From an uncultured Chloroflexia bacterium (lineage in GTDB: Bacteria > Chloroflexota > Anaerolineae > CG2-30-64-16), in assembly GCA_963774265.1 (NCBI GenBank), contig CAVZDU010000008.1, positions 128,001-192,000 of the forward strand: 64,000 nucleotides of DNA. Direction: 5' to 3'. This document shows, piece by piece, positions 25,862 through 54,340 of this stretch. A program made the translations under genes and the position numbers. Below the pieces are notes generated by a model. The model was not told the origin of the DNA, searched no databases, and saw only the letters and a program-made list of their open reading frames with translations. Position 1 is the first letter of the stretch. The number at the start of each line of letters is the position of its first letter.

Positions 25862-27883
25862 CTATCTCGCTGCACCGATCTCGCCAATCGTCTGCGGCTC
25901 ACCCAAGTGACGCAGCGGCTCGCTTGGATAGATGTAGAGGCCGGCCACTAGACGATATGGGCCAGGTCCCAGCTCCGCCGGAAGCGAGATAATGTGCCTA
26001 TCAGCCAGGCCTTCTCCGGGCGCCCACAGGCTGCTGGGGTAAAAATCACCCCCGGGACGATGGTCGCTTTGGCCCAGCTTGGCGTCTTCGGAGTTGAGGA
26101 CCTGCACGAAGGTCGTCCAATCCGCACCCATGAGCTGCAACGGCTCCCAGTAAAGAACCACCTGAAGCGGTTGACCGGGCGCCAGCGTCGCTGGTATCAA
26201 ATCATAGCCGGCGAGACGCACCGTGTCTCCATAGGTCAAATCGACGTCGTGATCGGGCTTAACCTTGGCTGGAAGGTTTACTGCGACTGGCGGTCCCAAT
26301 GGCCCCACCTGCTTATCGCCGAGGGGCGCCAGATCGAATTTGATGGCCAGCCCCGGCATGGGCTTGACCAGGTAGACGGGCCTCCCAGTCGCTAACGCCA
26401 GTTCTGTTACACGCGCCACTGTCGCCCACGCTGCACCTTGCTGAAGCTGCGGGAACAGCCCAGTCAGGTCTTGACGCGTCGCCTGGACATACTGGACATA
26501 CCACAATGGCGCCATCTCGTCTCGGTCATTGCTGACCAAAATCGCGTTCTGAGGCAGATCAGCGGCTAGCAGCGCGCCCCACGCCCGCTGCGCTGAGTCA
26601 TCGTTCGCGCGCTGCACTCTCGGCCAATGCACAACGGCCGATCGATAGGTGATCGCCAACAACAGGATGAAAGCAACGCTGGAGCCAGCCATAAGAGCAA
26701 CGCGACGCCTACCCTCATCTGAACTCCCGATCAGGGAGGCCACGGCTTGCCCAAGCGCCCACGCGCCCACACCCATCCACAGCACCCATACCAGGTACGC
26801 CGGAATGTAAAATACATGGATGTCACCGATGGCATAGAACAAGTTGAACGTGATTTGTGCGAGAAAGAATGTCCCTGTCAGACCGAGCAGCTGCCAGGCC
26901 CGATGATCCCTGCCGAAAACACCGCGGAGCAGCAGCCAGCCAAAGCCCAAAGCCCCCAAAATCAAGCCGCTTGTGCCCAATTCATCGACGAAGCGTCCCA
27001 CCAGTCCGCCGAGGTCAAGCGATCGGGCCTGTGGGGCAACCAAAGACGTACTGAAAACGCTCCCGCTGACATGTGCAAGAAAGCCGGCAACGGTCGATTC
27101 GTAAAGCGGTTGGGACTGGCCTGGCGCCAACTCAATACGATAGTACGGGACGTGCGGCGCTCGCAGTGGAATCACGAGGTAAAGCATGAGCGGCGCCAAC
27201 ACAACCATGCCGAGCGATAGAACCTGGTGCAGCGTGGGTCGCGGGTGACTGACTCTGTGACGAAGAACTCCGAATATGAAGAGGATGATCGCGGGAATCA
27301 GTAGGATCGTTGAACGGTGGTGGGTCAGGCTCAGGCCAAAGAATAGAGCTGTGAGGTACAGTTGCTGCGATGCGCCTGAGCTATCGCCACGGAGCACGCG
27401 TTCCGCCCACACGAGGAGCGCGAGCAGGATCGCCGCTACGAAGAAGGCGTGCAGCGTGTAAACTTCCGCGACGACCGCCTGCGACCAGAACGTTGGTGTG
27501 AAGTTGAACGCCAGCGCCGCACCCAGCGCAACCAACCGGGCCGGCCAGCCATCCGCTCTTGCATCGACAAATCTGAGCAGACGCATCACAACGAGGGAGA
27601 GAAGCGCGACAGCTACGCCGCCCCACAGCGCCGAGAAGAGGTTCATCCGATAGGCCGGCTCGCCGAACGGCACGATATGCGACCACAGCCAGCCGAGCAT
27701 GAGGTAGAGGGGATACCCTGTGGGGTGTGCGAAGCCGCCGAGCCACGCGGCAAACTGAAACTCCGCGCTGTCGCCCCACAGGAGTCCCGGCGCGAGGGAA
27801 CGGACGTACATGGCCAGGGCGAGAAAGCCGGCAAGCATGGCGACAGCGATGTCGGTAACGACCGCCCGCCGCGTTGAGCTCAC
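25862..27883 (-). CDS. DUF2723 (TMEM260-like) GT-C membrane glycosyltransferase with one C-terminal repeat domain
   Basis: GDSAEFQ, AHPTGYPLY, YRMNLFSA, FWSQAVVAEVYTL and GLSLTHHR; multiple TMs. GTG start overlaps the upstream stop (GTGA). Confidence 0.85.
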   Translation of the reverse strand: MSSTRRAVVTDIAVAMLAGFLALAMYVRSLAPGLLWGDSAEFQFAAWLGGFAHPTGYPLYLMLGWLWSHIVPFGEPAYRMNLFSALWGGVAVALLSLVVMRLLRFVDARADGWPARLVALGAALAFNFTPTFWSQAVVAEVYTLHAFFVAAILLALLVWAERVLRGDSSGASQQLYLTALFFGLSLTHHRSTILLIPAIILFIFGVLRHRVSHPRPTLHQVLSLGMVVLAPLMLYLVIPLRAPHVPYYRIELAPGQSQPLYESTVAGFLAHVSGSVFSTSLVAPQARSLDLGGLVGRFVDELGTSGLILGALGFGWLLLRGVFGRDHRAWQLLGLTGTFFLAQITFNLFYAIGDIHVFYIPAYLVWVLWMGVGAWALGQAVASLIGSSDEGRRRVALMAGSSVAFILLLAITYRSAVVHWPRVQRANDDSAQRAWGALLAADLPQNAILVSNDRDEMAPLWYVQYVQATRQDLTGLFPQLQQGAAWATVARVTELALATGRPVYLVKPMPGLAIKFDLAPLGDKQVGPLGPPVAVNLPAKVKPDHDVDLTYGDTVRLAGYDLIPATLAPGQPLQVVLYWEPLQLMGADWTTFVQVLNSEDAKLGQSDHRPGGDFYPSSLWAPGEGLADRHIISLPAELGPGPYRLVAGLYIYPSEPLRHLGEPQTIGEIGAAR

Positions 27884-30696
27884 TTGTCCAGCTCCACCCA
27901 ATCTACCGCTGCCGCAAGCGTGCGAAAATCGCCGGCCACGCGTAAATATGCGTCCGGCGCAATGACCTCAGCGGCCGTTCCCGGCGCGGCCCCCTGAATG
28001 CCCACCAGCGCGTGGGCTTGGCCCTTGAGATTCGCCGCACCAGTGGCCTTTGAACCCAGCCGCGCGATCGCCGCCAGTGCTTTGGGAGTCAGATTGGCTG
28101 TCGCATCACCTTTAGTCACCAGCACGACAATGCGTCCTACGGGCACCGTGTCGAGATAGGCGGCGAGCGCATCAGCCTCATATGTATTGGCTGCCGTGTC
28201 GAAGCCGCGCTTGTCCAGCAGTTCGCCGGTCTGCTCGTCGAATACCGCGACGTTGTAGCCCTGCCGCCCGGCCGACGCATCCGTCGTTGTACCGTCTGCT
28301 CCCATTGCTGTCGCGAACGCTTCACTGAAACCGTGCACTTCAAGGTTGACCGGGCTCTGCTCGCCGGTGCTCCCGATCAGCGCGCGGCTCGCCTCATCAG
28401 GGAAAACCTGACGCGGGCTGGCTGACCAGGCAAAGACGAGCCGTATGAGATTCGCCCCTTGCCGCGTGGCCGCCGCGGGCACACGGACTTCGATGGTCTG
28501 CCATCCTGGAGCCAAGTTGTGTCCGCGCAATACCGGCCCGTCGTTGAACGCGACGGACATCGTTTGCCTTGCATCGTCATATGTCAGCGGCGCCACCGCA
28601 AGCCGCAGCGTTATGTCTTGTGGCGCGTCAAGTGGAAGATACAGCTCCGCGATCTTATCAATGGCCCAATTCGCCGTGGCACTGTAAGGCTGCTCGCCAG
28701 TGCGCGCATCCCACCCTTCCCCAAGGTAAGGCTCATTGCCCGGCGTGCCCAGATCCAGATGGAAAGGGAGAGCCACAGACGGCTGCACCACGCGATACAC
28801 CCGGTATCCGTCCGCTTCCCAGACCGGTTGCTCTTCAAGCGGCAGCACGTCCAACGCGTACCGTTCGGTGCGCTGCCAGGTGTCCTGGTAGGGATACCGG
28901 CCCGGTATCGGCGGCGTAGACACAACATAGCGCACGTTGTAGAGGGTCATCAGGTCGCCCGCCTGGGCCCGCGCCGCCGCATCCACCTCCGGCAGCACAT
29001 CCCGATACATCTCCAGGTCCGTGATCGCCTTGAAAAGGGGAATACGACGGAAGTATTCCATTTTCAAAGCAGGAGCGCGGCTGATGTTGCCGCCGATCAT
29101 GCGCTTGCCGTGTGCGGTCTGGAAGTACTGGAGGTTCGTCTGCTCGCTGCCCAACACTCCGAAGCTATTTCGCCATCCCAGCGGCAACTGCATGATCGCA
29201 AAATCGCCTTCTTCCTCGCGCGATATTGCGATACACGAGGGGAATGCGCGCATCGGTCATTGGCAGCGGCACGGCCAGGTGCTCCAGGATGATCAGACCG
29301 ACCAAGAAGACCGAAATTGCCACAGAAGGCACAGAGATCGCAGAGGTGAGATTTTCTCGTCCTCCTCCGGGTTCTCGGTGGCTAGTGGTCATTCTCGCCA
29401 GAAGCCACGCGACACTGTAGGCGGCGAGCATCGCCAGCGCCAGCATCAGGAGCACACTAAAGCGGTTGGGGGCTCGGTTGGCGCTCACGAACGGGATGAA
29501 GTGCAGAAGGGTGAACGGCAGCGGGAAGGTCACGCCCTCCGGAAGCAAACGGTCAGCGCTAAAGCGGTAGCGCCCGTTGATCTGGAGGAGTGGACCAAGA
29601 ACAAGGAGGCCAAAAACCAGGGCCGACCAGGATCCATGGGACCATCCGTCTCCGGGCCAGGAATGCACCGACCAGGGCGAGCGCCAACGTGGCCCAGCCA
29701 ACGAACACGGTATTGATGTCGCTGAAGCGGCCTTCGCCTTTTTCCACGGCACGCAGTGCAGCCTGCCAGCCCTGACCGCTGGCCTCGTTGCCCCCCAGCA
29801 GCGGGTTCAAATTTGTCGGGGTGACAAGACCAACTGCGTCCGCGCTCGAGCTTGATGCTCTCGCCCCAGCCTTCCAAGGCGTAATCACCGCCTATGAACT
29901 CACGAGCGATGGGGACCAAAACCGGCGACCAGATCGTGACGGCGATCAATGCCGCCAATCCCACCATCGCCAATGCTCGCCTTCGATGGCGCAGCCCGCG
30001 CCAGGACGCGAGCAGCAAGACCAGCGATAGCAGCGCGAGGAACGAAGCGAGGCTCATCTCCGCGAGCGCGGCGAAGGCGAAGAAAAGCCCGGCAAGCACC
30101 GCGTGCTTTAGCTTCGGCCGGTGAACGGCCCGCAAGAAATAAAGCGCATAGAATGGCAGCCATTGGGTCGAAACCAGATCGTAATGACCGAGCGCCGCAT
30201 AGATGGCCCTGTTGGACGCAAACGCGTAGATCAAACCCGCTATCAGTGCGGCCAACTGCAGGTGATTCGTGCCAGTGCCAGCGTGCGCACGGCGCAGCAC
30301 ATCCAGCGCCAGAAGATATGCACCCAGCCCACTCAACGCGGTCGCCAGAAGCACTGTGATATTGCTGGCCACAACCGCGTTGAAGGCCAGCAACAGCGGC
30401 ATACCCGCCAGCGCGTTGAAGAGGTTGTAGGTGTGGAGGACCAGGTCGATCCCGAGGGGATGCCAGATCAGATCACTATGAAGGGGGCTGCTGTGCAAAT
30501 CGAGCAGCGCGTGCTTGAAGTACCAGATGTTCCAGACAAACGTCGATTCATCGAACGCCCACGTGGCTGTGCCCGGTAGCATCGTACTAAGATGGGCTAC
30601 CACGGGCCAGGTCAGGGCCAGGGTCAGCACGACAAAAAGCACAAGCACGCGCCACGTGACGCGCATCGAGGGGGTGCGCTTTGTCTGCGCTATCAT
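27880..30696 (-). CDS. Multi-TM GT-C-like protein with C-terminal ILEI (FAM3/PANDER, GG-type lectin) domain, frameshifted
   Basis: [22 protein letters not shown] and [15 protein letters not shown]; C-terminus [40 protein letters not shown]. Shifts near 29845, 29625 and 29235. ATGA overlap with the epimerase stop. Confidence 0.75.
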
Positions 30697-31673
30697 ACCG
30701 CGAGAAGGGCCTGCCATTGGCGTTCCAACCCTGCCGTCAGGTTGATCTCCGGATGGAAACCTAGCGTTGAGGCGGCGAGCCGGGTGTCAGCCCACGTATC
30801 ACGCACATCGCCGGGCTGCGCCGGCAAGCGCCGCACGGAAAGATTTCCACCGGCGAGAGCCGCAATGCCGGCGATGACCTCATTAACCGAGGCGCGCGTG
30901 CCGCCGGCAACGTTAACCACCTGAACGGCCGTGTCGCGCGCCAGACATCTCTCGCCCGCCAGCAGGAAAGCCCGAACGACATCCGCAACGTAGGTAAAAT
31001 CCCGGGTTTGTGCACCGTCACCGTAGAGGTCGATCTCTTGCCCGGCGGCAGCCGCCTTCAAAAAACGCCGAAACGCCATATCCGGGCGTTGTCGCGGGCC
31101 ATAAACCGTGAACAGCCGCAGGGACAGCGTCGGGAGGCCGTAAACATCATTGTAGAGCCGGCAAAGATACTCTGCAGCCAGCTTGGTGACGCCATAGGGA
31201 CTGATCGGCGCCGGCGCCGCGGACTCTTTCAGCGGCATCTCTGGCCGATTGCCGTAAACCGACGATGACGAAGCGTACACGACCGGAATCTTGCCTGCGG
31301 CACCACTTGCCTCTAGAAGCCGCTGAGTCGCCAGGATATTGTTGCGCACGTATACTTCGAACTGGCTCCCCCAGCTACCGCGGACGCCCGGCTGCCCGGC
31401 CATGTGATAGATCAGATCCACCCCATCCAATAGTCGCGAAAGATCCACATCAACGAGGTCAGCTTCAACCAGCCGGAAACCCGGGTGTGCCAGCGACACG
31501 CTCAGGTTGCTCTCCTTGACAGCGCGTCCGTAATAGTCGGTAAAGCAATCGACCCCAATCACTTGACGCCCGCGTGCCAGCAGCGCTTCACTCAGGTGTG
31601 AGCCGATAAAACCCGCAGCCCCGGTCACGACGACAGGACGCTCAGCGCTGTTAGCGACAGCCGGTTGATTCAT
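30693..31673 (-). CDS. NAD-dependent NDP-sugar epimerase/dehydratase (UDP-glucuronate/UDP-glucose 4-epimerase-like)
   Basis: VTGAAGFIGSH, AGQPGVR, ASSSSVYG, SPYGVTK, FTVYGPRQRPDMA, RDFTYV and QPGDV. Confidence 0.93.
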   Translation of the reverse strand: MNQPAVANSAERPVVVTGAAGFIGSHLSEALLARGRQVIGVDCFTDYYGRAVKESNLSVSLAHPGFRLVEADLVDVDLSRLLDGVDLIYHMAGQPGVRGSWGSQFEVYVRNNILATQRLLEASGAAGKIPVVYASSSSVYGNRPEMPLKESAAPAPISPYGVTKLAAEYLCRLYNDVYGLPTLSLRLFTVYGPRQRPDMAFRRFLKAAAAGQEIDLYGDGAQTRDFTYVADVVRAFLLAGERCLARDTAVQVVNVAGGTRASVNEVIAGIAALAGGNLSVRRLPAQPGDVRDTWADTRLAASTLGFHPEINLTAGLERQWQALLAV

Positions 31674-32693
31674 TACGCCCCCACTCGTCTTGCAGACTCC
31701 GCCACCATGTTCGCCGCCTCGACCACCACCCCAGACGCAGGCGCCGGCGCATCGAGCTGCTCACGGATCACGTAAATCGGCTTGTCCTGCGCTTCATGAT
31801 AGGTTCGGCGTGATCATCTCCGCCAGCAGGCCCATGCTCATCAATTGTACGCCGAGGACCACCAGCAGGACCGCCAAGAATAACAGAGGCCGCGTGCCGA
31901 TGTCCTGGCCAAACGCGAATTTGACGACGGTGAGATAAAGGCCGATCAGAAATCCGGCGCCGGCGGAAGCCAGTCCCAACCCACCGAAAACGTGGAGCGG
32001 CCGCGTCGAATAGCTCAGCATAAAGCGCACAGTGATCAGATCAAGGAACACTCGGAAAGTGCGGCTGATGCCGTATTTGCTCCTGCCGAACCGGCGCTTG
32101 CGATCGTTGACCGGCACCTCGGCAACCTTGACGCCCATCCAACTGGCAAGGGCGGGAATGAAGCGATGCAATTCGCCGTACAGCCGGATGTTCTTAACGA
32201 CCTCGCTCCGGTAAGCCTTGAGCGAGCAGCCATAGTCGTGTAAAACTACGCCCGTTGTGTCCGAGATCATCCGGTTCGCCATCATCGACGGAAGGCGGCG
32301 GCTGAGGAATGGCTCTTTGCGATTCGTCCGCCAACCGCTGACAATATCGTACCCTTCATCCAGCCTGACCAGCAAGCGTCCGATATCGCCAGGATCGTTT
32401 TGCAAGTCAGCATCCGAAGTGACTACAACCTCCCCGCGTGCGGCCGCAAAACCGGCTGCAAAGCCAGCCGCCTGGCCAAAGTTGCGCCGAAACCGAATGA
32501 TACGCCAGCGGGAATCACGCTGATGAATCTCGCGCAATCGGGCGAAGCTATCGTCTGTGCTGCCATCATCCACGACGATAACCTCGTACGACCGACCAAC
32601 CTGATCGAGCGCGGCGGAGAGCTCGCTATACAGCGGCTCAACATTCTCGGCTTCATTGTAGAGTGGGATGACAACAGAGAGGAGTGGTGTCAT
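31673..32693 (-). CDS. GT2 polyprenol-phosphate glycosyltransferase (DPM/ArnC/GtrB-like), frameshift near 31808
   Basis: SVVIPLYNE, VDDGSTD, RNFGQ, DADLQNDP, DYGCSLKAYR, GELHRFIP and two C-terminal TMs. The alternative frame YHEAQDKPIYVIRE ends in a TAATG overlap. Confidence 0.92.
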
Positions 32694-32694
32694 G

Positions 32695-33705
32695 TTATGT
32701 CTTTCGACGGGCCCGGCGCAGCCCTTGGCCAAGGTATAGCACCCCGCCGAGCAGCCCCGTGGCCACCGTGATTGCATAAATGCTCAGCGAAAACGCCAGC
32801 GCGGTCGCCTGCGGTACGCCGGCGCTTCCCAGGAGCGCGACATACGACAGCTCACGCACTCCCAGGCCGCCGAATGCGGGCAGCAGCAACGCGGCTGACG
32901 TTAATGGCACGATCACAAAGTAGAGCGCAATCGGCAGCCGCAGGCCCAGGCCAACGCCAATCATCACGTTCCAGAAGATCTGCAACAGGTTGAAGACGAT
33001 GGACACGAGGAATGCCCGCACAATCGCCCCCAGGCTATAGCTGGATAGGCCGGCTGCCACATCTGGCAGCCGCGCTAATTGCAGCAGCCGTGTCGCGAAA
33101 CCGCCGCGTTGCGCCCAATTGCGCCACCAGGGACGGGTCAATAACCAGGCAACAAAGATGCCGCCGGCCAGTAGCAAACCAATCAGCCCGAGTATGGGAC
33201 CTGGCGCCAGGTCCGGTCGGAACGCGCCAGCAACGAGGCCCATCGCCAACAACGCCATCAAACCCAGATAACGGTCGACGACGACGCTGTTCAGGATAAC
33301 GCCGATTCGCTGCGTATCCTGTGACAGTTCCACCACGCGCACCGCATCACCGCCGAAACCAGTCGGCAGCAAGACGTTGAAGAAACCGCCCACGAAATAC
33401 CACAGCACCAAGTCACGAAGCGGCCGGTGCACATTGAGCGACAGCAACAACACTTGCCACCGTATGGCTCGGACAATGACACCTATCAGGAATAGAGCCC
33501 ACGCCGCGACCAACCAGGGCAGACTGATCTGAGCCAGCGAGGTCCGCAGGTCGCCCCACTCCACTTGACGGAATGCAACGACCAGCAGGATGATGCTGAT
33601 GCCCACCTGCAGAATGCCGCGTAGGTGCCTGGTCGAAGATCGTTTCTGCTTCAAGTGTGGCGGAACTCCGGACCCGAGTATACCGTATTTGGCGACGTTT
33701 GCCAA
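32695..33705 (-). CDS. Flippase-like protein (lysylphosphatidylglycerol-synthase TM/UPF0104/AglD2-like)
   Basis: RAIRWQVLL, FFNVLLPTGFGGDAVR, SVVVDRYLG and GGLGVRE; ~8 TMs; start uncertain. Confidence 0.88.
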   Translation of the reverse strand: MANVAKYGILGSGVPPHLKQKRSSTRHLRGILQVGISIILLVVAFRQVEWGDLRTSLAQISLPWLVAAWALFLIGVIVRAIRWQVLLLSLNVHRPLRDLVLWYFVGGFFNVLLPTGFGGDAVRVVELSQDTQRIGVILNSVVVDRYLGLMALLAMGLVAGAFRPDLAPGPILGLIGLLLAGGIFVAWLLTRPWWRNWAQRGGFATRLLQLARLPDVAAGLSSYSLGAIVRAFLVSIVFNLLQIFWNVMIGVGLGLRLPIALYFVIVPLTSAALLLPAFGGLGVRELSYVALLGSAGVPQATALAFSLSIYAITVATGLLGGVLYLGQGLRRARRKT

Positions 33706-44252: not shown

Positions 44253-47200
44253 CGCGATCCGAAAGGATTCCGACAATGATTTGTCACGTAGCGCAAGGTG
44301 GCATCTTGCGCTACGTAAGTCCCTGCCGGCTTTGCTGACCCTTCCTGCGCTCTGGCCTCTGATCAGCGAAGGGTTACCGCGCGCACAGGATACCGTGATG
44401 CATCTGATGCGCCTGGGCGCTCTCGACTATCAGATACGACATGGCACGCTCTACCCTCGCTGGTTGCCGGGACTGATGCTCGGTCACGGCTATCCGCTGC
44501 TTAACTTCTACGGTCCGCTACCTTACTTCCTCGCAGAAGTGTTTCGACTGGCGGGATTCAGCTACACCCTGGCGTTTACTCTGACGCACACCATCTGGAT
44601 TCTTCTCGCTATCTACGGCATGTTCACCCTGGCCTCTGACGTGTTCGGTAAGTCACAATGGTATGCCGCTCTGGTGGCTGCGGTAGCATATGCCTATGCG
44701 CCATACTTGCTCACCAATATTTACATTCGGGGGGCGATCTCTGAGGCCGGCGCGCAAGCGGTCCTGCCTTGGGTCCTCTGGAGCGCCAGGCGACTGATGC
44801 GCGGTGAACAGACGACCCGCTATGTCATGCTCTTAGCGTTCAGCCTGGGCGCACTGGCCATAACTCACAACATCACCCTGCTGTTTGCGGCGCCCGCGGT
44901 GCTTGCGTACATGATCGTGCTTTGGTGGCAGGGCGGCTGCAGCCGTCAGAGGCTGCTTTGGGGCGCCATGGGGCTGTTGGCTGCCATGGGTGTCAGTGCA
45001 TTCTTCTGGCTTCCTGTTGTGGTCGAGCAAGCCTACCTTGACCAAAGCGCATATCGAGTTTCAACAGAGGTCTCGCTGCTCCGCAGCGCTTGGACCTGGG
45101 ATAGCTTCCTCGATACAGTCCCTGGCCTTCAAGTACAGCTCTACCACGCCATTTCGTCTTGGACTAATCCAGATTGCCCTGGCAACAACAGGCTTTATCC
45201 TGACGCCGGCTATGCCGTCTAGAGCCGGCATGGCCCGTCGCCAGAGTGCTGAGTGGTGGTTTTTCCTCATCGTGGCTCTGCTTGCAGGGCTGACCGCCAG
45301 CGCCTGGACCTTACCCGTTTGGCTGAACAGCAATCTGTTGCAGGTCGCCCAATTCCAGTGGCGGTTGTTGTCCGTCATGTCACTGCCGCTCGCGCTCTTC
45401 ACCGGCGGCATTGCCCTCCGCATCCCGTCTGCCCGCTGGCGTCTTGCGGAGAAACCACTTCACTTTGCCGTCGCTGCTGGACTGCTTGCGCTGATCATGT
45501 GCGCCAACCGGCCTGCATTCGATCAACTTCGTGTATTTTCGCCGGCCAACACCGAGCCTACCCAGTCCGTAATCGCACAACTGGAAGTGGAGAACAAGGT
45601 GTTCGGCGCCAGCGGCATTCAGGAGTTCAAGCCACGGTGGGCCGGAGATGTCACCAAGTTGGCGCCAATGCCAGAGGCGCCGGCCAGTGAAGCAGAACGC
45701 CTCCCTCAGGAAGTTGACCTGGTATTGTCCAGAGGGAATGCCTACGATCTCGAGGCCAGAGTCTCGGTCGCTGCCGGCGGTCCTTTGAGATTCAGCCAGT
45801 TCTACTTCCCCGGCTGGCGGGTAATTCTCGATCGCCGGACGGTGCTCCAAGCCTATCCCAGTACGAGCCTGGGCCTGCTCACCGTGGATCTCCCGCCCGG
45901 CGCCCACGAGCTGTCACTTTCGTGGAGCGGAACGGCGCTTCAACATGTGGCAGCGGGGACCACGCTGGTGACGCTGGCTGCCCTGGTCTGGGTATGGCGC
46001 CCTTGCAGGCGGCGTCGATGGTTCCTCCTGCCTCTGGGGCTATTTGGCCTGAGCGTCATACTGGGGGTGTGGCAACGCCCCCTGGCCCCGATCCAGGCGC
46101 CTCCCTCCGGGCAAGTCATAGAAGCAGATGGTGCAAGATTGTTAGGTTACCGGTGGGAGCGGGATGATCGTGACCATCTGTTCCTGTATCCGTACTGGTA
46201 TGTGTCGGCCGGCCCACCTGCATCGTTGCGCGCTCGCTGGCAACTTCAGGACGACACCGGCCGTGTTCTGGCTGATGTTACTTCCCAACCGTACTACAAT
46301 GCCGACACCGCCAGCAACTGGCCTCCACGTACGGTAGTGAGCGACGCCTACCAACTTCCCCTGCCACCGGGCCTGCCCGCCGGCACGTACCAGCTCGCCA
46401 TCGGGCTAGGGAGTTCCGAAGCTGTTGCCGGGGAGCAGACCGAGGAGGCGTTGGCCGCTCCGCTGACGCCGGTGGGCACACTCACGCTTGCTGTGCCCGT
46501 GCCTGACGAGGCGACTCCGGATCACCCGCTAGACGTTTATGTGGGCGACGCTGTCCGCCTGGCCGGATTTGATGTCTCCCCGGCCGGGACGACAGTGAAG
46601 GCCGGCCAGGATCTGGACTTCACCCTGTACTGGCAGGCTTTGCAGCCGGTTGCCACGAACTACCACGGTTTCGTCCATCTTGTGGATGCCCGCGGTCGCC
46701 CCTTGACGCAACTTGACCAACTTCCCGGGCCATCCTTCCGGCCGCCGATGCTCTGGGCGGGTGATCGCCTGGAACCAGATGCGTACCACTTGCGCATACC
46801 CGAGGACGCCCCCAGTGGATTGTACTGGCCGATGGCCGGCCTGTATGATTATGCAACGTCGAAGCGACTTCTGGTGCGTGACTCGGGCGGACAAAACCTG
46901 GGCGATGCCGTGCGTCTGCCGCCCACCAAAGTCCTTGGTCGCGCGCACGGCGCTCCCAAGTATCGAGTCCAGGCGCGGTTTGATGATCTGGCAGCGCTTC
47001 TGGGCTACGATTTGAATATCGCCTCACCGGGACTGCGAGCAGGCCAGTCTTTCACTCTGACCCTATACTACAAGTGCCAAACGACCACATCGGCGGATCT
47101 GACACGTTTTGTCCACCTTTACGGTCCTGCGGGTAGCATGGCCGCCCAGAATGACAGTATGCCCGCAGATGGTGCGAATCCGACTTGGAGTTGGGTGCCG

Positions 47201-47389
47201 GGCGAAGTGATCGTAGAGGAAATATCCTTGACGACAGCCAGTGACGCACGTCCAGGTGTCTACTCGCTGAGCATCGGTTTCTACAATGCCCAGGCTGGAG
47301 GACAGGCGCCACGCCTGCCCGTCTTCGATGCGCATGGGCAGCCGTTGCCAGACAGCCAGGTGATCCTGACTGAGGTTGAAATAAAGTAA
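44242..47389 (+). CDS. PTPS-related/YfhO-like GT-C membrane protein with three repeat domains, frameshift near 45120
   Basis: Close paralog of 36738-39845 (LPALWP.ISEGLPR, YAYAPYLLTNIYIRGAI.EAGAQA, NPTWSWVPGE); two ORFs join across one indel. Confidence 0.82.
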
Positions 47390-47409
47390 GGCGCGGTCGG
47401 GCCTTACAT

Positions 47410-47438: not shown

Positions 47439-47460
47439 GCTGACCCATCGATAGAAGCCC

Positions 47461-50316
47461 TTGCCCGGCCACATCACGAGCCACTGCATAGAGGAGACGG
47501 CCGAAATCGTCAGTGATTACCATCGGCCCCGTCAATTTCTAAGCCACCGGGGCCGGCAGGACTTGGTCATCCTGTTGGGCCTGGTGCTGCTGGCCACCTC
47601 GCTGCGCGTCTATCACCTGGACTTCCAGAGCCTCTGGAGCGACGAGGGGATCAGCCTGCTTCGCGCCAGTTTGCCGCTGGGGGAAATGCTGCAGACGATG
47701 CCGGTGGAGCACGCGCCGGGTTACTTCCTCCTTCTGGGATTCTGGCTCCGGCTGACCGGCACGAGTGACTTCGCCCTGCGTCTTCTCTCCCTTTGGCCGA
47801 GCGTGTTGGCAGTCGCTATGGTCTATCGATTGGCAGCGGACATGGGTTCCAGGCGCGCGGGTCTCGTGGCCGCTCTCCTGCTCGCAATTAATCCCTTCCA
47901 GGTCTGGTATGCGCAAGAAGCGCGTATGTATAGCTGGCTGCTGGCCACTGCCCTGGGATCCACATGCCTGTTGTGGAGGCTTCTCGCAGATCGGCGTTCT
48001 GGCTTAGCCGAAGAAGTCGGGCGGAGGGGCTCTCGTTGGTGGCCGATCGGGTTGGGCTACACCGTCCTCACCTCGGCAGCTATTTACCTCCACTACTACG
48101 GCTTCCTCGTGCCCCTGGCACAGACGATCTACGCCCTGGTCTGGCTGTGGTGGACCCGCGATCGGCGCCGATTTATGCGCTGGGTCATGGCAGGGGCCGG
48201 TGTTATCTTGCTGTACCTCCCCTGGCTGCCGCGCCTTCTCGGCATATTCGGCTTCAGCGGCTGGCGGCCACCGGTGGATCCCTGGCAGCTCCCCTGGCGT
48301 TATCTGACGGCCTACACAGTCGGTGATGCCATGCCTGCCCCCTGGCGCGAGTGGCTGCCGTGGCTCTACCTGGCGCTTGCGCTCATCGGGCTCTGGGGCT
48401 GGTGGCGACACGATCGCGGGGCTGCCTTGTTGCTGGCGCTGAGCACCGCTGTCCCGATGGCGGCGGCTCTGGCCCTGGCCCTGCGTCAGCCCGACTTTCA
48501 TGAGCGCTATACCATTTTCGTGAGCGCCCCGTTGCTCGTTCTCGTCGCCGGCAGTACACTGATCGGACGCCCCAGCCTGTCTTCTCGTCGCCCCGTCCCG
48601 GCATCCCTCCTGGTCCGCAGTCTGGTGCTGGCTGGCCTGGTGGCTGCCAACGGGCTGGCACTATATCGCCACTATACAGACACCTCGTTACACAAGCCGG
48701 ACTTTCGCTCTGCGGCAGTGCGTATCCAGCAATGGGAGCAGCCGGGAGACGTTATCCTGGTCGATGGGCCAGATCCACAGAAGGTATTCCTTCACTATTA
48801 TCACGGTTCGGCGCCGGTGCATGATCTGCGGACGTTGGAAGGCGCCGACGAGCACCAGGTGGATGTGGCCCTGACCGAGGCTACGGCTGGTCGTGAACGC
48901 GCCTGGGGTCTACGCTATTTCCACGATCCGGGTCCTGTGCAGGCCTGGCTGGCTCGTCACGCCTGGCCGACTCGCGCCTCTGGACACAATGGCATCGTTG
49001 TGACCCTTTACGACCTGCTGGACGGGCAGGGGTCTACGCAGCCAGCTAACGTGGCTTTCGGCGCTGAATTGACGTTGTCCGAGGCAACGATCACCGGGGG
49101 CGCCAAGGCCGGGGATACAATCTCAGCGCGCGCTGGCGATCTCTTGGGAGTAACCAGTGTGTGGCAGGTGCATTCAGCCCCGCCCCCGCACAAGTTCAGC
49201 TTGCGGCTTCAGGACGACGCGGGCCGCATCTGGCTGGCCGACGACTACATACCCCAGGACGGCTTCGCGCCGACAGAGCGCTGGCTGCCAGACCAATCGG
49301 CGGTCGACCAGCGCGGTGTGCCGCTTCCGCCTGACTTGCCTCCCGGCAGATACCGACTCACCCTGCGTCTGTACGACGCGGCGACGGGCGTCCCTGTTGA
49401 GACCGCTGCTGGCCCCGATGTGACGCTGGCGGCCCTCGACATAGGGCCCGCCCCAGTTGCACCTGACCCCCTCTTGCTGCCGATGAGTGTCAGGATTGAT
49501 GCGCCCTTGGGGGATGAACTGCGTCTTCTCGGTCTGGACGTGACACCGCAACCTTTACGGGTCGGACATGAGAGTGCGTTGTCGTTGTGGTGGCGCGTCG
49601 AGGACAAGCCCGCAGGACCGAAGCAGCTTCGGATACGGCTGCTAGATCGTCGCGGTGATCCTGTATTCAAGGGGTTGCAGCCTCTTAGCCTCCTGTCGCC
49701 GGACGGCCCGAACTGGGAACCGGGTCAGATCGTTCGCGAACGCTACCGGCTGGAAGTGGCTCCAACCGCGGCCAGCGGGCGCTATCGCCTGGAGCTGGCC
49801 CTGTCCGACTTGACCGGTGACGCACTCTTCGGTGAGCCGCAAATCGTGGCGATCATGCCGGTCGAGGCACGCCCGCGCAATTATCGCCTGCCTCAAATAG
49901 CTCACGACCTGGACGTGCGGCTCGGCGACGCAGTGATGCTCCGAGGTTATGATTTGACCCCATCCGAAGGATCAGGACGGACCCTGCGTCTCACCCTCTA
50001 CTGGCAGGCGATAGGACGAGTGGGCGGGCACTACAAGGCGTTTGTCCACGTGCTGGATGAGGAAGGGCGCATCGTGGCCCAATCTGACGCGGTTCCGGCA
50101 GGCGGTGAGGCCCCGACCGAGACTTGGCTGCAGAATGAGGTCGTAATCGATCAGCACCTGCTACAAGTGGCCAGGGACGGGCGCTGCCGGCTGTTCGTCG
50201 GCATGTATGATCCTGTAAGCGGTCAACGCCTGCCCGCTACCGACGGAGATGGTCATCCGATCCCCGACAACGCCGCCCTGATCGAGGAAGTGCTGATACC
50301 GCTGATGGGGTCTTGA
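47461..50316 (+). CDS. ArnT/PMT-like (GT-C) glycosyltransferase with three C-terminal repeat domains
   Basis: LRVYHLDFQSLWSDEGIS, HAPGYF, FALRLLS, WYAQEARMYS, YLHYYG and KPDFR; start uncertain. Confidence 0.87.
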   Translation: MPGHITSHCIEETAEIVSDYHRPRQFLSHRGRQDLVILLGLVLLATSLRVYHLDFQSLWSDEGISLLRASLPLGEMLQTMPVEHAPGYFLLLGFWLRLTGTSDFALRLLSLWPSVLAVAMVYRLAADMGSRRAGLVAALLLAINPFQVWYAQEARMYSWLLATALGSTCLLWRLLADRRSGLAEEVGRRGSRWWPIGLGYTVLTSAAIYLHYYGFLVPLAQTIYALVWLWWTRDRRRFMRWVMAGAGVILLYLPWLPRLLGIFGFSGWRPPVDPWQLPWRYLTAYTVGDAMPAPWREWLPWLYLALALIGLWGWWRHDRGAALLLALSTAVPMAAALALALRQPDFHERYTIFVSAPLLVLVAGSTLIGRPSLSSRRPVPASLLVRSLVLAGLVAANGLALYRHYTDTSLHKPDFRSAAVRIQQWEQPGDVILVDGPDPQKVFLHYYHGSAPVHDLRTLEGADEHQVDVALTEATAGRERAWGLRYFHDPGPVQAWLARHAWPTRASGHNGIVVTLYDLLDGQGSTQPANVAFGAELTLSEATITGGAKAGDTISARAGDLLGVTSVWQVHSAPPPHKFSLRLQDDAGRIWLADDYIPQDGFAPTERWLPDQSAVDQRGVPLPPDLPPGRYRLTLRLYDAATGVPVETAAGPDVTLAALDIGPAPVAPDPLLLPMSVRIDAPLGDELRLLGLDVTPQPLRVGHESALSLWWRVEDKPAGPKQLRIRLLDRRGDPVFKGLQPLSLLSPDGPNWEPGQIVRERYRLEVAPTAASGRYRLELALSDLTGDALFGEPQIVAIMPVEARPRNYRLPQIAHDLDVRLGDAVMLRGYDLTPSEGSGRTLRLTLYWQAIGRVGGHYKAFVHVLDEEGRIVAQSDAVPAGGEAPTETWLQNEVVIDQHLLQVARDGRCRLFVGMYDPVSGQRLPATDGDGHPIPDNAALIEEVLIPLMGS

Positions 50317-50326
50317 CCTACCTGCT

Positions 50327-52399
50327 ATGAAAACATTGCGTTTCTGGTGCTCGAAGCCGTGGCTGCATGTTGTCGTCATTCTGCTGGTTGCCGGCTTGTT
50401 CCGGCTCTGGCAGATCGGCAGCATCCCGCCCGGCCTGTTCGGGGATGAAGCGACGGACGGCCTGGATGCCCTCGACGTGCTGGCTGGTCGCGGGGCGGTC
50501 TTCTTCCCGGCGAATTTCGGCCGCGAAGGTCTGCACATGTGGATCATCGCCTGCATGTTCCGCCTTCTGGGGGTTGTGCCGCTCGCCCTGCGCCTCCCGT
50601 CGGCGGTCGCCGGAATCCTGACCGCCCTGGCCACCTATTGGTTGGGCCGGGAGTTGCTCGCTGCATGGTCGCATGGCACCCGAGAGCGCGACGGGTCCAC
50701 GCCGCCGTGGCCCTGGTCGTTCCTGCCGCTCTTCGCGGCCCTTTACATCGCCACCTCCTACTGGCATGTTCACTTCTCCCGCTTCGGCATCCGCGGAGTT
50801 TTCACGCCGTTCCTGAGTGCGCTGGCATTCGCCGCCTTCTGGCGTGCGGTCAACCGCCATTCGTACGCCTGGTTTGCCGTGAGCGGCGCCTGCTTGGGTC
50901 TCGCGTTGCACTTCTACACAGCAAGCCGCTTCTTTCCTCTTTTCCTCGGCGGGTTCCTCCTGCTGCAAGGATTGGTCGCGCTGATTTCGAGACGGGGGAA
51001 GCAGGCCATCCTGGCCCAGCATTTTCGTGGAGTCGCGCTGCTGTTCGCCGTTGCGGTAGTGATGTTTGCGCCGTTGGGCATCTACTTCCTGCAGCATCCA
51101 GGTGCGTTTACCCAGCGTGCAGGCGTCGTAACGGCCTTCGGCGAGGAGAGCCCACTGCTTCTCATGGGGCGCGCGGCCGTGGCGAATGTGCTCCAGTTTT
51201 TCGTGCCGGGACACGGGGATGTGGAGCAATTCTACAACCTGCCGGGACGCGTGGTCTTCGATCCCCTGACAGCCGTCCTGGCGCTCCTCGGACTGGGACT
51301 ATTGGCGTGGCGCTGGCGCCAAGACAGCGCTCTGTTTCTGTTGTTGTGGTTTCCGGCCCTGCTGCTGCCCTCGTTCCTGGCCACAGACCGCTGGCCCACC
51401 CTGCCGCGCGTGCTCGGGACCATCCCCGGCATTTACTTCTTTCCGGCAATCGGCCTGATCGCAGTCGCGGTGCTCCTGCAGCGATTGGGTCGATGCACCA
51501 GAGCGCAACTCGGGCCCGCGGCCGAGATCGTTGCCGTGGCCATGCTCATCCTTGCGCCCGGCATCCACGCTGTATGCACCTATCGCGACTATTTTCTGAT
51601 CTGGGGACCGTCAGTGCAGACTTTCGATGCCTTCGAAGGTGACATGACTGCCGCCTGGCGCTGGCTCGAAGATCACCCGCCTGCCGGGCACGTCTTTCTC
51701 TCCTCCGACATTTACCGGCATCCGACGTTCATGCTGCTCCACGAACGGGCGAGCGTACAAACTTTCTGGCAACACGCGAACCCGGATCTGAGTTGGTTTG
51801 ATGCCCGGCAGGTGTTGCCCTTGCCTGCGCCCGGCGAACAGGCCACTTATCTCATCGCCGCTTCTTCGCCTCCGTCGGCTGAAAGCTCGGCGCTCCTCCG
51901 ACGATACGGTCAGGAAGTGGATCAGGTGTCCGCACCCGACGGCAGCCCGGCCCTGACGGTCTTCAAGGTGAGCGACACATCCGACATGGCGCTGCTGCCC
52001 GAGAACGCGGTCCCGTCGATACGATTCACCGATAACCTGACGCTGGCGGACGCGACCATCGTCAGGACAGACACAGGGGCTTATGATCTCTGGCTGAGCT
52101 GGCAAACGCTGGGGCCAGACTCTTCGGGCTGGCCCGCCTATCGGTTAGAGATCAGGTCGGGAAGCCCCGAGGGCGAAGCCACCAGTGGTTGGCAGGAAAC
52201 AGTCCCCTTTGACGCGTTCCGGCCACCCGAGTGGGTGGCCGGCGGGATGTTTCTATCTTGGCATCAATTGAAGGGGTTGACCGGAACGCCGCCCAGCAGT
52301 CTCAGCCTGCGCCTGATCAACCTGCAGGATGGTGAGCCTGTGGCCAGCACGAACACATCTGACGGCTGGCAGACGATCCAGCTCACCGAGACGCCTTAA
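50327..52399 (+). CDS. ArnT/PMT-like (GT-C) glycosyltransferase
   Basis: FRLWQIGSIPPGLFGDEATDG, NFGREG, SYWHVHFSRFGIR and YNLPGRVVFDP; one degenerate repeat domain. Confidence 0.85.
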   Translation: MKTLRFWCSKPWLHVVVILLVAGLFRLWQIGSIPPGLFGDEATDGLDALDVLAGRGAVFFPANFGREGLHMWIIACMFRLLGVVPLALRLPSAVAGILTALATYWLGRELLAAWSHGTRERDGSTPPWPWSFLPLFAALYIATSYWHVHFSRFGIRGVFTPFLSALAFAAFWRAVNRHSYAWFAVSGACLGLALHFYTASRFFPLFLGGFLLLQGLVALISRRGKQAILAQHFRGVALLFAVAVVMFAPLGIYFLQHPGAFTQRAGVVTAFGEESPLLLMGRAAVANVLQFFVPGHGDVEQFYNLPGRVVFDPLTAVLALLGLGLLAWRWRQDSALFLLLWFPALLLPSFLATDRWPTLPRVLGTIPGIYFFPAIGLIAVAVLLQRLGRCTRAQLGPAAEIVAVAMLILAPGIHAVCTYRDYFLIWGPSVQTFDAFEGDMTAAWRWLEDHPPAGHVFLSSDIYRHPTFMLLHERASVQTFWQHANPDLSWFDARQVLPLPAPGEQATYLIAASSPPSAESSALLRRYGQEVDQVSAPDGSPALTVFKVSDTSDMALLPENAVPSIRFTDNLTLADATIVRTDTGAYDLWLSWQTLGPDSSGWPAYRLEIRSGSPEGEATSGWQETVPFDAFRPPEWVAGGMFLSWHQLKGLTGTPPSSLSLRLINLQDGEPVASTNTSDGWQTIQLTETP

Positions 52400-52404
52400 G
52401 GTGT

Positions 52405-53244
52405 CTAAACGCGCTTCTGACCTAGCAGCCAGCGATGGTGCGACCAGATTTGCTTGATCTTCCACGGCAGCCGCCACCGCTCCAGCCAGGCATATTTCAT
52501 CACGCGCCTGTAGAGGTCGTAGTCCTTGCCGAGATAGTAATCCATCGTCGACCAGCGCCACCCCTCGCCCGTAAACCGCCCTTCGAGCTTCTTCGAACGG
52601 ATGCCGATCTTGCGCAGCAGTTGGGCAGCGGGCATAACCGTGTCCGGCCACGGCGGGGTGTCCAACACGCCTTGCTCCAGGATCGCGACCCCCATGCCTT
52701 CCAGCGTCCGCCGGATCATGCCAATGTCGGTCCAGCGCTCGTCGACCTCATTCACAAACTCCGGTTCGACGATGTGCTTACGCACCTGGTAACCGACCTG
52801 CACCGGATTGGGCACGGCCACAAAGACGAGCTTATTGCTGACGCGCACCAACTCAGACAGGAGCGCAGCGGGCTCCTTCAGCCGCCAGATCGCCGCCCAG
52901 TTCCAGGCAAGCTCGAACTGGTTGTCAGGAAAGGGTAGCCTGGACCAGTCGTTCACCTGCGCGAAGCGTGCGGATAGCCCCAGCTCGCGCCAAATGCGCT
53001 GCACGCCTGCGAGGCGCTCCGCATCGTCGTCAACCAGGGTGACAGGTGTCTTGATGCGCGACAAGGCCACACTGTTGATCCCACTGACGCCAGCCATGCC
53101 GAACAAAGGCGCCTCAATCACATTGGCAAAGCCATAGCGGCCCTTAAGACTCAGTAGGAAGTCGTTAAGGACAAATCGCTCGTAGACCAGACCGAGGCCT
53201 TCGTTGTAGTCGGTGAGATATCTTTTCCAGGTGGGTTCAGTCAC
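52405..53244 (-). CDS. Class I SAM-dependent methyltransferase-like protein
   Basis: TLVDDD, LPFPDNQFELAWN and LLSELVRVSNKLVFVAVPN; motif I is atypical (EAPLFGMAG). Confidence 0.7.
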   Translation of the reverse strand: MTEPTWKRYLTDYNEGLGLVYERFVLNDFLLSLKGRYGFANVIEAPLFGMAGVSGINSVALSRIKTPVTLVDDDAERLAGVQRIWRELGLSARFAQVNDWSRLPFPDNQFELAWNWAAIWRLKEPAALLSELVRVSNKLVFVAVPNPVQVGYQVRKHIVEPEFVNEVDERWTDIGMIRRTLEGMGVAILEQGVLDTPPWPDTVMPAAQLLRKIGIRSKKLEGRFTGEGWRWSTMDYYLGKDYDLYRRVMKYAWLERWRLPWKIKQIWSHHRWLLGQKRV

Positions 53245-53356
53245 AGTGAAACGCTCCGAGAGGCAAGTCTATCATAGGCATGGCAGGATATGCTAAAGGT
53301 CGCTTTACGACTTACCCCGGACAGATTAGAATGACACAACAAGGAGCTGATAATAA

Positions 53357-54340
53357 GTGGCCGGACAAGACATTCTCATCACCGGGATCAATGGATTCAT
53401 TGCCAGCCATCTCGCCGAGCGCCTCCTGCAACACGGCGTAGGTGTACGCGGCTCCGCACGGCGGCCTGCCGCAGCAAACTGGCTTGCAGAGCGTGGCATT
53501 GACATCGCATGGGCGGATCTGTCAGATCGGCAAGCGCTTGGCCGTGCAATGACCGGCTGCCGCTCTGTCGTTCACGCTGCGGCCTGGACCGGAGGGCCGG
53601 AGCTGCCGCCGGAGACCGGTTACCAGGTCAACGTCGACGGAACCGCCAACGTCCTCGCTGCAGCCCAAGCGGCCGGCGTCGGGCGTTTCATCTACATCAG
53701 TAGCGTAGCAGTATACGGGCCGAACCGTGCGCCGCTGATTGACGAGATTGCGCCCACGCCACGCGTTGGCCAGGCCTACCCGGACAGCAAGATCGTTGCC
53801 GAGGCGCTGGTGCGCAGGTCTGGTCTGCCTTTCGTCATCGTCCGCCCGGCCTCCACCTACGGCCCGCGCGGCACAGCGTGGACGCTCGGACCGGTCGAGA
53901 AGATCAAAGCGGGCCGATTGGTCCTGGTCGGGCAAGATCGGGGTCTGGTGACTCCAGGTTACATCGACAACGTGGTCGACGGATTGATTCTCGCGTTAGG
54001 CCACAACGCTGCGCTCGGTGAAGCCTTCAATCTGTGCGATGACCTGGCAGTCAGCTATCGCCAATTCTATCTCTCGTACGCGCACATGCTCGGCCTCTCT
54101 ACTCTCCCTACGTTGCCCGGCATCGTGGCGCACCTCGCTCGCCTGGGCCCAGCGCAACTGATGCGCCGTGTAACCGGCCGGCCCTCCGCCGGCCCCTGGT
54201 CACTGCACTTCCGGTTTAATCCATCGCAGTTCAGCGTCGCCAAGGCGAAGCTCCGGCTTGGTTACGAGCCCACGATTGGCTTCGAAGAAGGTATGCGCCG
54301 GACGGAGGCATGGCTGCGCGCATCAGGCATCATTCCGTAA
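53357..54340 (+). CDS. Extended SDR: NAD-dependent epimerase/dehydratase
   Basis: ITGINGFIASH, VHAAA, NVDGT, ISSVAVYG, YPDSK and RPASTYGP. Confidence 0.9.
   Translation: MAGQDILITGINGFIASHLAERLLQHGVGVRGSARRPAAANWLAERGIDIAWADLSDRQALGRAMTGCRSVVHAAAWTGGPELPPETGYQVNVDGTANVLAAAQAAGVGRFIYISSVAVYGPNRAPLIDEIAPTPRVGQAYPDSKIVAEALVRRSGLPFVIVRPASTYGPRGTAWTLGPVEKIKAGRLVLVGQDRGLVTPGYIDNVVDGLILALGHNAALGEAFNLCDDLAVSYRQFYLSYAHMLGLSTLPTLPGIVAHLARLGPAQLMRRVTGRPSAGPWSLHFRFNPSQFSVAKAKLRLGYEPTIGFEEGMRRTEAWLRASGIIP

Follow-up and report, generated by a model that had tools for sequence, protein, structure and literature searches.

Eight clustered GT-C-type genes in an Anaerolineae genome probably combine two independently inherited modules of a class-wide surface glycosylation machinery

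Batteries of membrane glycosyltransferases of the GT-C type that draw on lipid-linked sugars are familiar from mycobacteria, as Emb/Aft and as the GT-Cs that depend on polyprenol-phosphate-mannose, and in Rhizobium RgtA-C likewise take part in galacturonosylation. For Rhizobium, passages of PMC7663294 describe a family 2 glycosyltransferase (GT2), RgtE, which makes polyprenyl-phosphate-galacturonate for use by several transferases (RgtD/RgtF), the acceptors being lipid A and the core of lipopolysaccharide (LPS). In the multi-component transmembrane systems GtrABC, CsbB/GtcA/YfhO and Citrobacter ORF15/14/12, as outlined in parts of PMC8035078 and PMC11127046, a polyprenol-phosphate-sugar synthase of the GT-A type is combined with a flippase and with GT-Cs that have an acidic residue after the first helix, and some known GT-Cs carry extracellular carbohydrate-binding domains. 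A section of PMC12041528 presents the Pgf system of Streptococcus mutans (PgfS, PgfE, PgfM1, PgfM2), with a GT2, an epimerase and two GT-Cs. Here we analyse a cluster of eight GT-C-type genes in an uncultured Chloroflexota bacterium of the class Anaerolineae (assembly GCA_963774265.1; 5.5 Mb in 10 contigs, numbered C1 to C10 here, 84% complete). It lies at positions 25,862 to 54,340 of a stretch of 64,000 nucleotides on C8 (CAVZDU010000008.1, positions 128,001 to 192,000), which we call the window. Our analysis suggests that the locus probably consists of two independently inherited glycosylation modules side by side, forming one of three arrays in the genome, with a shared pool of lipid-linked sugars that would feed many GT-Cs outside the membrane; this probability applies to the reading as a whole.

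The locus resembles the multi-component transmembrane systems in its predicted polyprenol-phosphate-sugar synthase, its candidate flippase and its GT-Cs with an acidic residue after the first helix, and it would function in this way, in a variant form. The flippase is GtrA, Wzx or a MATE/SMR protein in the known systems, and the candidate here belongs to another family, PF03706; those systems have one to three GT-Cs, whereas tens are encoded in this genome; and the tail of the GT-Cs is here an uncatalogued domain in one to three copies. The machinery is a predicted class-wide cell-surface glycosylation system of Anaerolineae, of which the window holds one ordinary instance. Gene content, the folds of one GT-C and of the tail, motifs, linkage and co-occurrence were computed directly, and the remainder is inferred from them. 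Searches of the open-access literature gave no functional description of this machinery, as had been supposed (subscription journals and supplements, which may hold counts of carbohydrate-active enzymes, fall outside this coverage). Two surveys remark, in one sentence each, on the abundance of GT83-type genes in Anaerolineae and Caldilineae and read them as carbohydrate metabolism, and PMT_2 genes are listed in the appendix of one publication.

The eight-gene cluster itself is real. A sequence-only reading of this DNA had proposed a coupled operon for a flippase-like protein, a GT2, an epimerase, a GT-C with an ILEI domain and a GT-C with a DUF2723 domain (TMEM260-like), together with six further GT-C genes, a remnant, a methyltransferase-like gene and a short-chain dehydrogenase/reductase (SDR). 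The operon and the six GT-C genes, called A to F here, were borne out in domains and junctions: the five operon genes follow each other with a 1-nt gap and then TAATG, ATGA and GTGA overlaps, the TAATG overlap holding only when an indel near 31808 is bridged in the GT2 reading frame. The other three features are also present, the remnant consisting of tail only and being preceded by a remnant of an insertion sequence (IS) of the IS256 family. The count of eight needs read-through, because the ILEI-GT-C and D are split by indels. About 59 genes of GT-C type occur in the genome (pooled family and homology matches, split genes merged by hand, and DUF2298 and DUF2079 presumably belonging to the type), and three arrays stand out, with about 12 genes on C3 (28 kb), 9 on C2 (19 kb) and 8 here (23 kb). 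In 5000 trials of random placement of the 59 genes, no 30-kb interval ever held more than six, and the clustering thus exceeds chance. The C3 array (C3:129-165 kb) includes a separate small GT2 as well as DegT aminotransferase and DUF2079 genes, with Wzy_C at one end and GT4/GT2 genes at the other, and in the C2 array (C2:62-89 kb), which lacks the tail, PMT_2, DUF2298 and PMT_2-NHL genes lie behind PF03706, epimerase, GT4 and methyltransferase genes. The GC content of the stretch (0.59-0.64) is the same as that of the contig; given this and the two arrays of similar or larger size elsewhere, we rejected the possibility of a unique or foreign island. Wzx, Wzy, Wzz, Wzm/Wzt and GT4 genes are absent from the 48 open reading frames (ORFs) scanned in the window, where Pfam calls were judged against each family's own cut-off. 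The claim that such genes are lacking holds for the window but not for the genome, since Wzy_C and GT4 genes stand beside the other arrays and a Wzt_C gene lies elsewhere (C1:80635, in a region with several GT2s, C1:72-99 kb).

The eight GT-Cs fall into five groups: A/C/F (30-33% identity in the membrane part, 33% between C and A), the paralogues B and D (47-58%), E, the ILEI-tailed protein and the TMEM260-like protein. Profile classification succeeded in part: the TMEM260-like and ILEI proteins, B, C and E have matches above cut-offs, whereas those of A, D and F lie below. The matches of A to F to the GT-C-type families PMT_2 or PTPS_related are weak, with PMT_2 above its cut-off for C and E only and PF02366 for none of the eight; homologues of A are labelled GT39 or ArnT-like in the sources. 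The expected acidic motif, an Asp in the first loop after the first helix, mostly as DE, is kept in all eight (comparators 30-59 for the TMEM260-like and ILEI proteins, A, C and F, and only 6-8 for B, D and E). In the TMEM260-like protein D44 and E47, numbered as in the listed ORF, are conserved in at least 90% of 30 homologues, and the DE motif of the ILEI-GT-C is invariant in 16 orthologues; D48/E49 of A, D40/E41 of C and D61/E62 of E are conserved, as is D56 of B among only six other sequences. An AlphaFold2 model of A (pLDDT 93.5) has the GT-C fold: over residues 15-540 it matches AglB (Z 29.1), STT3B (24.8), ArnT (24.7) and Pmt2 (23.8), Foldseek is concordant, with ArnT as best match, and mycobacterial Emb/Aft-type structures are among the fold-search matches. 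Many homologues, among them those of Caldilineaceae, match A-type proteins from end to end at 46-60% identity, and Litorilinea aerophila has a homologue with 51% identity to A. Searches of the PDB sequences with profiles of the A family and of the tail gave nothing significant (best match RbmA, E 0.17). We regard the GT-Cs with high confidence as putative active transferases. An oligosaccharyltransferase of the STT3/AglB/PglB type was considered and rejected: AglB is the top structural match of A, yet PF02516 (STT3) has no match in the genome (84% complete) and none of the eight GT-Cs has the WWD motif.

What we term module 1 consists of the GT2, the PF03706 protein and the epimerase. The GT2 matches ArnC (E 2e-59), GtrB (E 2e-34) and dolichol-phosphate-mannose (DPM) synthase (E 2e-18) in the PDB over its full length, including two C-terminal helices, and is very probably, by its sequence and in line with earlier expectation, a polyprenol-phosphate-sugar synthase. 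It scores below the NCBIfam cut-offs for ArnC (214 against 529) and PgfS (161 against 500), and a plasmid search gave no named orthologue. The best PDB matches of the epimerase are 6ZL6 (E 7e-77), which carries a generic label there and which we take to be the Bacillus cereus enzyme, and MoeE5 (E 1e-64). The numbering of 6ZL6 agrees with that in PMC12338863, a part of which names MoeE5 a UDP-glucuronate 4-epimerase and also names P85, R185, Q211 and T280 of the B. cereus epimerase; by a hand count on the printed alignment, our epimerase keeps the equivalents of these four residues, and it has the YxxxK catalytic pair. On this resemblance we lean, on balance, towards polyprenol-phosphate-galacturonate as the predicted donor here. 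The epimerase would convert UDP-glucuronate to UDP-galacturonate, the GT2 would load the uronic acid onto polyprenol phosphate, and the PF03706 protein would flip the lipid-linked uronate outward; where the epimerase is absent, the product of the GT2 may be glucuronate. In 13 of the 30 other genomes with both genes, no more than 15 kb separate the epimerase from the GT2.

The PF03706 protein is a likely candidate for the flippase. It scores 36 bits with TIGR00374, below the cut-off of 43, and probably starts at a TTG at 33654 behind a sigma-70-like site (33705-33677), five promoter-like sites having been found against five expected by chance. Of 38 loci with a GT2 orthologue, many of them on short contigs, 27 have a PF03706 gene no more than 3.5 kb away (all 13 from the same family and 14 of 25 from other families), and the only GtrA gene of the genome lies away from the locus. 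The same triad of PF03706, GT2 (47% identity) and GT39 occurs in Sinorhizobium meliloti, and PF03706 may be a general lipid-sugar flippase. In Azospirillum, two methyltransferases accompany PF03706, the GT2 and a nine-helix hypothetical protein. The GT2 is usually beside GT-Cs that end in an immunoglobulin-like (Ig-like) domain: among the 25 other-family loci, 19 (from 17 of 23 families) have a GT-C or an Ig-tailed gene no more than 10 kb from its orthologue, compared with 12% of positions in this genome. The linkage of the GT2 to GT-C genes recurs in this way; the ILEI and TMEM260-like genes are not co-inherited with it. Within one GT-C array the GT2 is flanked by two genes for type I phosphodiesterase/nucleotide pyrophosphatase (L175:5326-9720).

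That reading had also proposed that the one flippase-GT2-epimerase module supplies all eight GT-Cs as a dedicated, archaeal or endoplasmic reticulum (ER)-like assembly line. Translational coupling links the trio with the ILEI and TMEM260-like genes, its direction is divergent from that of A, and among 20 related Chloroflexota loci, of which four have no upstream sequence, it stands directly upstream of the ILEI gene, so that the five-gene operon recurs, in five of the 16 informative ones. It is missing there in the other 11. Of the 93 genomes with the ILEI-GT-C, 37 have no match to this GT2 (E 1e-80), and the same is true of 27 among the 64 that hold the TMEM260-like gene; A and E are neighbours in a genome of the same genus and are separated here by B, the IS remnant, C and D; and the genome has further GT2 candidates for donor synthesis (26 GT2 matches, at least three others weakly matching models of polyprenol-phosphate-sugar synthases among three scanned) besides eight PF03706 matches. 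A single module serving all eight is improbable on these grounds, and we instead favour two modules. The archaeal/ER comparison is not needed either, since one donor serving many GT-Cs is already known in bacteria (Rhizobium Rgt, streptococcal Pgf), and no STT3/AglB gene was found in the genome (84% complete).

Of these precedents, Rgt is the nearest for a uronate donor that serves many enzymes, likened here by its description in a part of PMC7663294. Its acceptors, lipid A and the LPS core, set it apart, Chloroflexota being described as monoderm-like in a passage of PMC12488501. The five-gene operon resembles Pgf in combining a GT2, an epimerase and two GT-Cs; Pgf, according to the section of PMC12041528 cited above, transfers N-acetylgalactosamine, has GT-Cs of the YfhO type and adjoins its adhesin genes, whereas here the epimerase is of the uronate type and the ILEI-tailed and TMEM260-like GT-Cs are not co-inherited with the GT2. 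Membership in Pgf was rejected on the PgfS score, the type of epimerase and a YfhO match that is found only on B and below threshold. We know of no LPS in Chloroflexota. ArnC and ArnT are the best PDB match of the GT2 and the best Foldseek match of A; ArnT has no such tails, however, and membership in the ArnC/ArnT lipid A modification was rejected, as the ArnC equivalogue score is not reached and arnA/B/D/E/F have no matches among the window genes, to which this search was limited. The mycobacterial batteries are similar in having few lipid-linked donors and many GT-Cs with beta-sandwich appendages (sketched in a part of PMC11127046); they differ in donors and polymers and in the number of genes, about 59 GT-C-type genes being present here, and no sequence-level relation to them was found.

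Module 2 is formed by the methyltransferase, the ILEI-GT-C, the TMEM260-like GT-C and a SPASM-like radical-SAM enzyme that is encoded elsewhere in this genome as a stand-alone, frameshifted gene (C1:162498-163642). In 201 Anaerolineae genomes, our class sample, the four genes co-occur with phi of 0.74-0.91, compared with 0.01-0.17 against the GT2 (ILEI-GT-C 0.06, TMEM260-like 0.01). The methyltransferase is single-copy and present in 90 genomes, in 89 at 51-77% identity and in one at 35%. Both it and the ILEI-GT-C are found in 87 genomes, each alone in 3 and 6 respectively and neither in 105 (phi 0.91), and they lie within 15 kb of each other in 19 of 86; for the methyltransferase and the radical-SAM enzyme phi is 0.81, with 15 of 87 within 15 kb. 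The ILEI-GT-C is found in all 64 genomes with the TMEM260-like gene, no more than 6 kb away from it in 36 of 63. In contrast, the ILEI-GT-C or methyltransferase lies within 15 kb of the GT2 in none of 55 other genomes. Since kin are not independent and presence goes by family, phi overstates the association, and linkage in several families is the better evidence for module 2: distant families have operons in the order methyltransferase, GalE-like, radical SAM, GT87-like, GT-C, ILEI and in some cases TMEM260-like, and the GT2 is absent from the stretches fetched around them. The methyltransferase and radical-SAM enzyme would make or modify a sugar, and the sugars transferred by the TMEM260-like and ILEI-tailed GT-Cs would come from a donor not necessarily identical with the product of module 1. 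PDB matches of the methyltransferase are weak and name no substrate, and the radical-SAM partner has no equivalogue in NCBIfam. Directly upstream of the methyltransferase, several families (L137, L138, L141, L165, L166) have an ArsA/Get3-type ATPase with an HSP20-like domain, and it lies nearby in others (L132, L143); this may reflect an old gene order or a functional link. A contig of Aenigmatarchaeota carries a distant ILEI-GT-C-like gene (26-39% identity) beside a GT2.

Two proteins of this module recall animal protein O-mannosylation. The TMEM260-like protein matches PF11028 at 125 bits (cut-off 24.2), like human TMEM260 (GT117), which O-mannosylates Ig-like (IPT) domains of proteins, and its conserved first-loop residue D44 is, we infer, equivalent to human D52; it differs in its Ig-like tail. 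The best PDB sequence match of the ILEI domain is POMGnT1 (E 4e-15), in the region that we take to be the sugar-binding stem. Catalysis in POMGnT1 is the task of a GT-A domain; here it is a GT-C-like protein that carries the ILEI domain. The arrays might thus serve mainly protein O-glycosylation, each GT-C starting or extending glycans on secreted proteins such as S-layer proteins, pili or archaellins. A portion of PMC10214176 describes animal TMEM260 as a protein O-mannosyltransferase that has "distant homologs in bacteria", YfhO-type GT-Cs glycosylate proteins in streptococci (part of PMC12041528), and a section of PMC12488501 reports probable O-glycans at T66 and T145 of the archaellin of Litorilinea, where the homologue of A is found. 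The locus has no acceptor gene, however, and a crude test finds only 10 Pro/Thr-rich ORFs of membrane type; STT3 and the WWD motif are lacking, as said above, the second array ends in a Wzy_C gene, and dozens of enzymes per genome would suit glycan building equally. Protein glycosylation as the main role is therefore unlikely. We give no more credence to a joint reading, in which Anaerolineae surface glycans are built almost wholly outside the membrane by tens of GT-Cs with a lineage-typical Ig-like reader, and module 2 is a bacterial protein O-glycosylation resembling animal O-mannosylation: the TMEM260-like enzyme would initiate a glycan on beta-sandwich surface proteins (S-layer, archaellin, pilins), the GT-C with the POMGnT1-stem-like lectin would extend it, and the radical-SAM enzyme and methyltransferase would supply an unusual methylated sugar.

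A domain of 135 aa ends six of the eight GT-Cs (the TMEM260-like protein and A to E) in one to three copies each, 15 in total, and F has a degenerate copy that scores only 12.9 bits. The whole genome has 56 copies in 32 ORFs, 28 of which have at least two hydrophobic segments before the first copy, while the remaining four resemble broken pieces of genes of this kind. The last tail of E was modelled as an Ig-like beta-sandwich (pLDDT 94.7), and the nearest folds are an Ig-like domain of GH2 (Z 10.1) and the carbohydrate-binding domain of Wzt (Z 8.2); compared with the tail in the full-length model, the Wzt domain reaches Z 10.3 (root-mean-square deviation 2.5 over 110 residues), tied with the GH2 Ig-like domains. 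Pfam has no family for the domain, and the Atlas gives only unnamed clusters, with DUF4832 at 0.77 as a weak lead. It is present in 195 of the 201 class genomes (E 1e-10), with at least 20 matches in 160 and at least 10 in 187, and in 61 of 151 genomes of a phylum sample, where 19 genomes of other classes have at least 21 matches; 34,872 clusters at 50% identity carry it. Binding of the acceptor is a candidate role to which we assign about even chances. Under the two-module reading, A to F and about two dozen further Ig-tailed GT-Cs of the genome would draw on a shared pool of lipid-linked sugars, the module 1 product among others, and add sugars to surface acceptors that the tails would help to recognise. 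For A to F, a wall or sheath polysaccharide or a glycolipid has an even chance of being the main acceptor; proteins come second, as a tentative option, and a combination of both is the least likely of the three. Four LCP genes (C1:176748, C2:170116, C3:224620, C7:325033) and the Wzt_C gene indicate that a wall-linked glycan can exist, and a wall-linked polymer is a possible acceptor. Six genomes are tail-less, five of one family (f18) and one of another (f20), and the f18 genome examined keeps the GT2, PF03706 and a PMT_2 gene that has no tail; such genomes offer a natural group for comparison.

The array expands by insertion. Relatives usually have the methyltransferase, the ILEI-GT-C and the TMEM260-like gene in the interval from etfAB-rpsA-cca to mtaB-yqeY-HD-ybeY, and gene number at the site varies among them. 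In a genome of the same genus A, E and F are consecutive, and here B, the IS256 remnant, the tail-only remnant, C and D stand between A and E; in relatives F is often beside the methyltransferase or the flippase. The stretch may be seen as a site capable of expansion, in which two modules of an extracytoplasmic glycosylation system common to the Anaerolineae would have come side by side. The clustering could also lack any pathway meaning, with GT-C paralogues multiplying at permissive sites by duplication and IS-aided insertion and many of them redundant, decaying or non-catalytic tail anchors. The two remnants inside the array, the paralogues B and D and the variable gene number would fit this. 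The acidic residues at the catalytic position are conserved, however, the tails are too divergent for recent copies (median identity 24%), A-type proteins are conserved at full length, as noted above, and the linkage to the GT2 recurs in 17 of 23 families. We consider this the least probable of the alternatives. The split genes are another apparent sign of decay: the ILEI-GT-C reading frame is interrupted by three indels (near 29200, 29630 and 29800), and D (near 45115) and the tail of the GT2 (near 31808) by one each. These are probably read errors, because the genes for electron transfer flavoprotein (ETF) beta and the CCA enzyme in the window, which are housekeeping genes, are broken in the same way, the ILEI gene is a single 955-aa frame in the same-genus orthologue, and the extra base at 29630 is absent from a short-read contig of a related strain (one contig, depth 3). 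True pseudogenes are disfavoured. A search of sequencing runs listed only DNA runs holding a small share and no RNA run, a result that does not bear on expression. In the beta-oxidation/ETF cluster of the window (3729-14113, 18734-21348, 24954-25712), partial domain matches and breaks also suggest a high rate of indel errors in the assembly.

Several results weigh against the two-module reading. Module 2 is present in a nearly all-or-none manner by family, so that shared ancestry explains part of its co-occurrence. The GT2 occurs in 115 class genomes and the epimerase in 38, with both in 31, and galacturonate therefore cannot be a class-wide rule. Of the 25 other-family loci, 11 have no PF03706 gene close to the GT2 and nine were chosen for holding the epimerase and not at random, and only six of 13 same-family loci have a GT-C or tailed gene within 10 kb. 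The tail scores (Z 8-10) are near the background for Ig-like folds and indicate no function, Foldseek finds no match to the tail at E 0.001 or better, and the Wzt_C profile PF14524, which matches the one gene at C1:80635, matches none of the tails. The GT-C fold that the sequence-only reading had expected throughout was modelled for A and thus for one of the eight. The assignment of the ILEI protein is the weakest, being based on weak profile matches: PMT_2 in six of 16 orthologues (best E 5e-5) and a profile match (E 1e-4, probability 54%) that aligns its DE motif with that of the gene A family. The evidence as a whole is computational.

Table 1. Features of the glycosylation locus in window coordinates
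Feature	Position	Strand	Remarks
TMEM260-like (DUF2723/GT117-like) GT-C, one Ig-like tail	25862..27883	-	module 2; PF11028 125 bits (cut-off 24.2)
GT-C-like membrane protein, C-terminal ILEI (POMGnT1-stem-like) domain, three indels	27880..30696	-	module 2; ILEI 66 bits
UDP-glucuronate 4-epimerase-like SDR	30693..31673	-	module 1 accessory; epimerase family 189 bits
ArnC/GtrB-like GT2, two C-terminal helices, indel near 31808	31673..32693	-	module 1; GT2 family 114 bits
PF03706 (MprF-flippase-like) membrane protein, candidate flippase	32695..33705	-	module 1; PF03706 128 bits
GT-C A, three Ig-like tails	33846..36695	+	AlphaFold2 model; PMT_2 16.6 bits, below cut-off 26.1
GT-C B (PTPS_related/YfhO-like), three Ig-like tails	36738..39845	-	PTPS_related 33.9 bits (cut-off 26.4)
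IS256/Mutator transposase remnant	about 39961..41010	-	PF00872 E 8e-11; stops and frame breaks
Ig-tail-only GT-C remnant, in-frame stops	41087..41500	+	tail profile match
GT-C C (A/C/F subfamily), two Ig-like tails	41550..44252	+	PMT_2 27.1 bits (cut-off 26.1)
GT-C D (PTPS_related), three Ig-like tails, one indel near 45115	44197..47389	+	PTPS_related 22.4 bits, below cut-off 26.4
GT-C E, three Ig-like tails	47461..50316	+	PMT_2 30.6 bits (cut-off 26.1)
GT-C F (A/C/F subfamily), one degenerate tail	50327..52399	+	PMT_2 18.6 bits, below cut-off 26.1; tail 12.9 bits
Single-copy class I SAM-methyltransferase-like protein, unusual motif I	52405..53244	-	module 2; PF08241 26 bits; Atlas clusters 0.99
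Extended SDR (HpnA/OleD-like)	53357..54340	+	family scans

The extended SDR at the end of the locus probably belongs with the flanking mtaB-yqeY-HD-ybeY run and not with the GT-C modules; it adjoins mtaB in same-family loci, and none was seen at distant methyltransferase loci. Elsewhere in the window, ribosomal protein S1 (21807-23606) has a long acidic, repeated C-terminal tail, with a second S1-domain gene nearby (14859-15725), and two Yip1-domain membrane proteins stand in tandem (17101-18612). The window has no tRNA, tmRNA or Rfam matches.

The envelope of Chloroflexota is poorly understood, and this work supplies parts of it that can be tested: the predicted donor of uronate, PF03706 as a candidate flippase for lipid-linked sugars, and a module of four genes that includes a TMEM260 homologue from bacteria. 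The tail, which has no Pfam family, is a near-universal trait of the class (195 of 201 genomes) and is carried by some 35,000 clusters at 50% identity. A cultured relative, Litorilinea, has both a homologue of gene A and, according to a section of PMC12488501, probable O-glycans on its archaellin.

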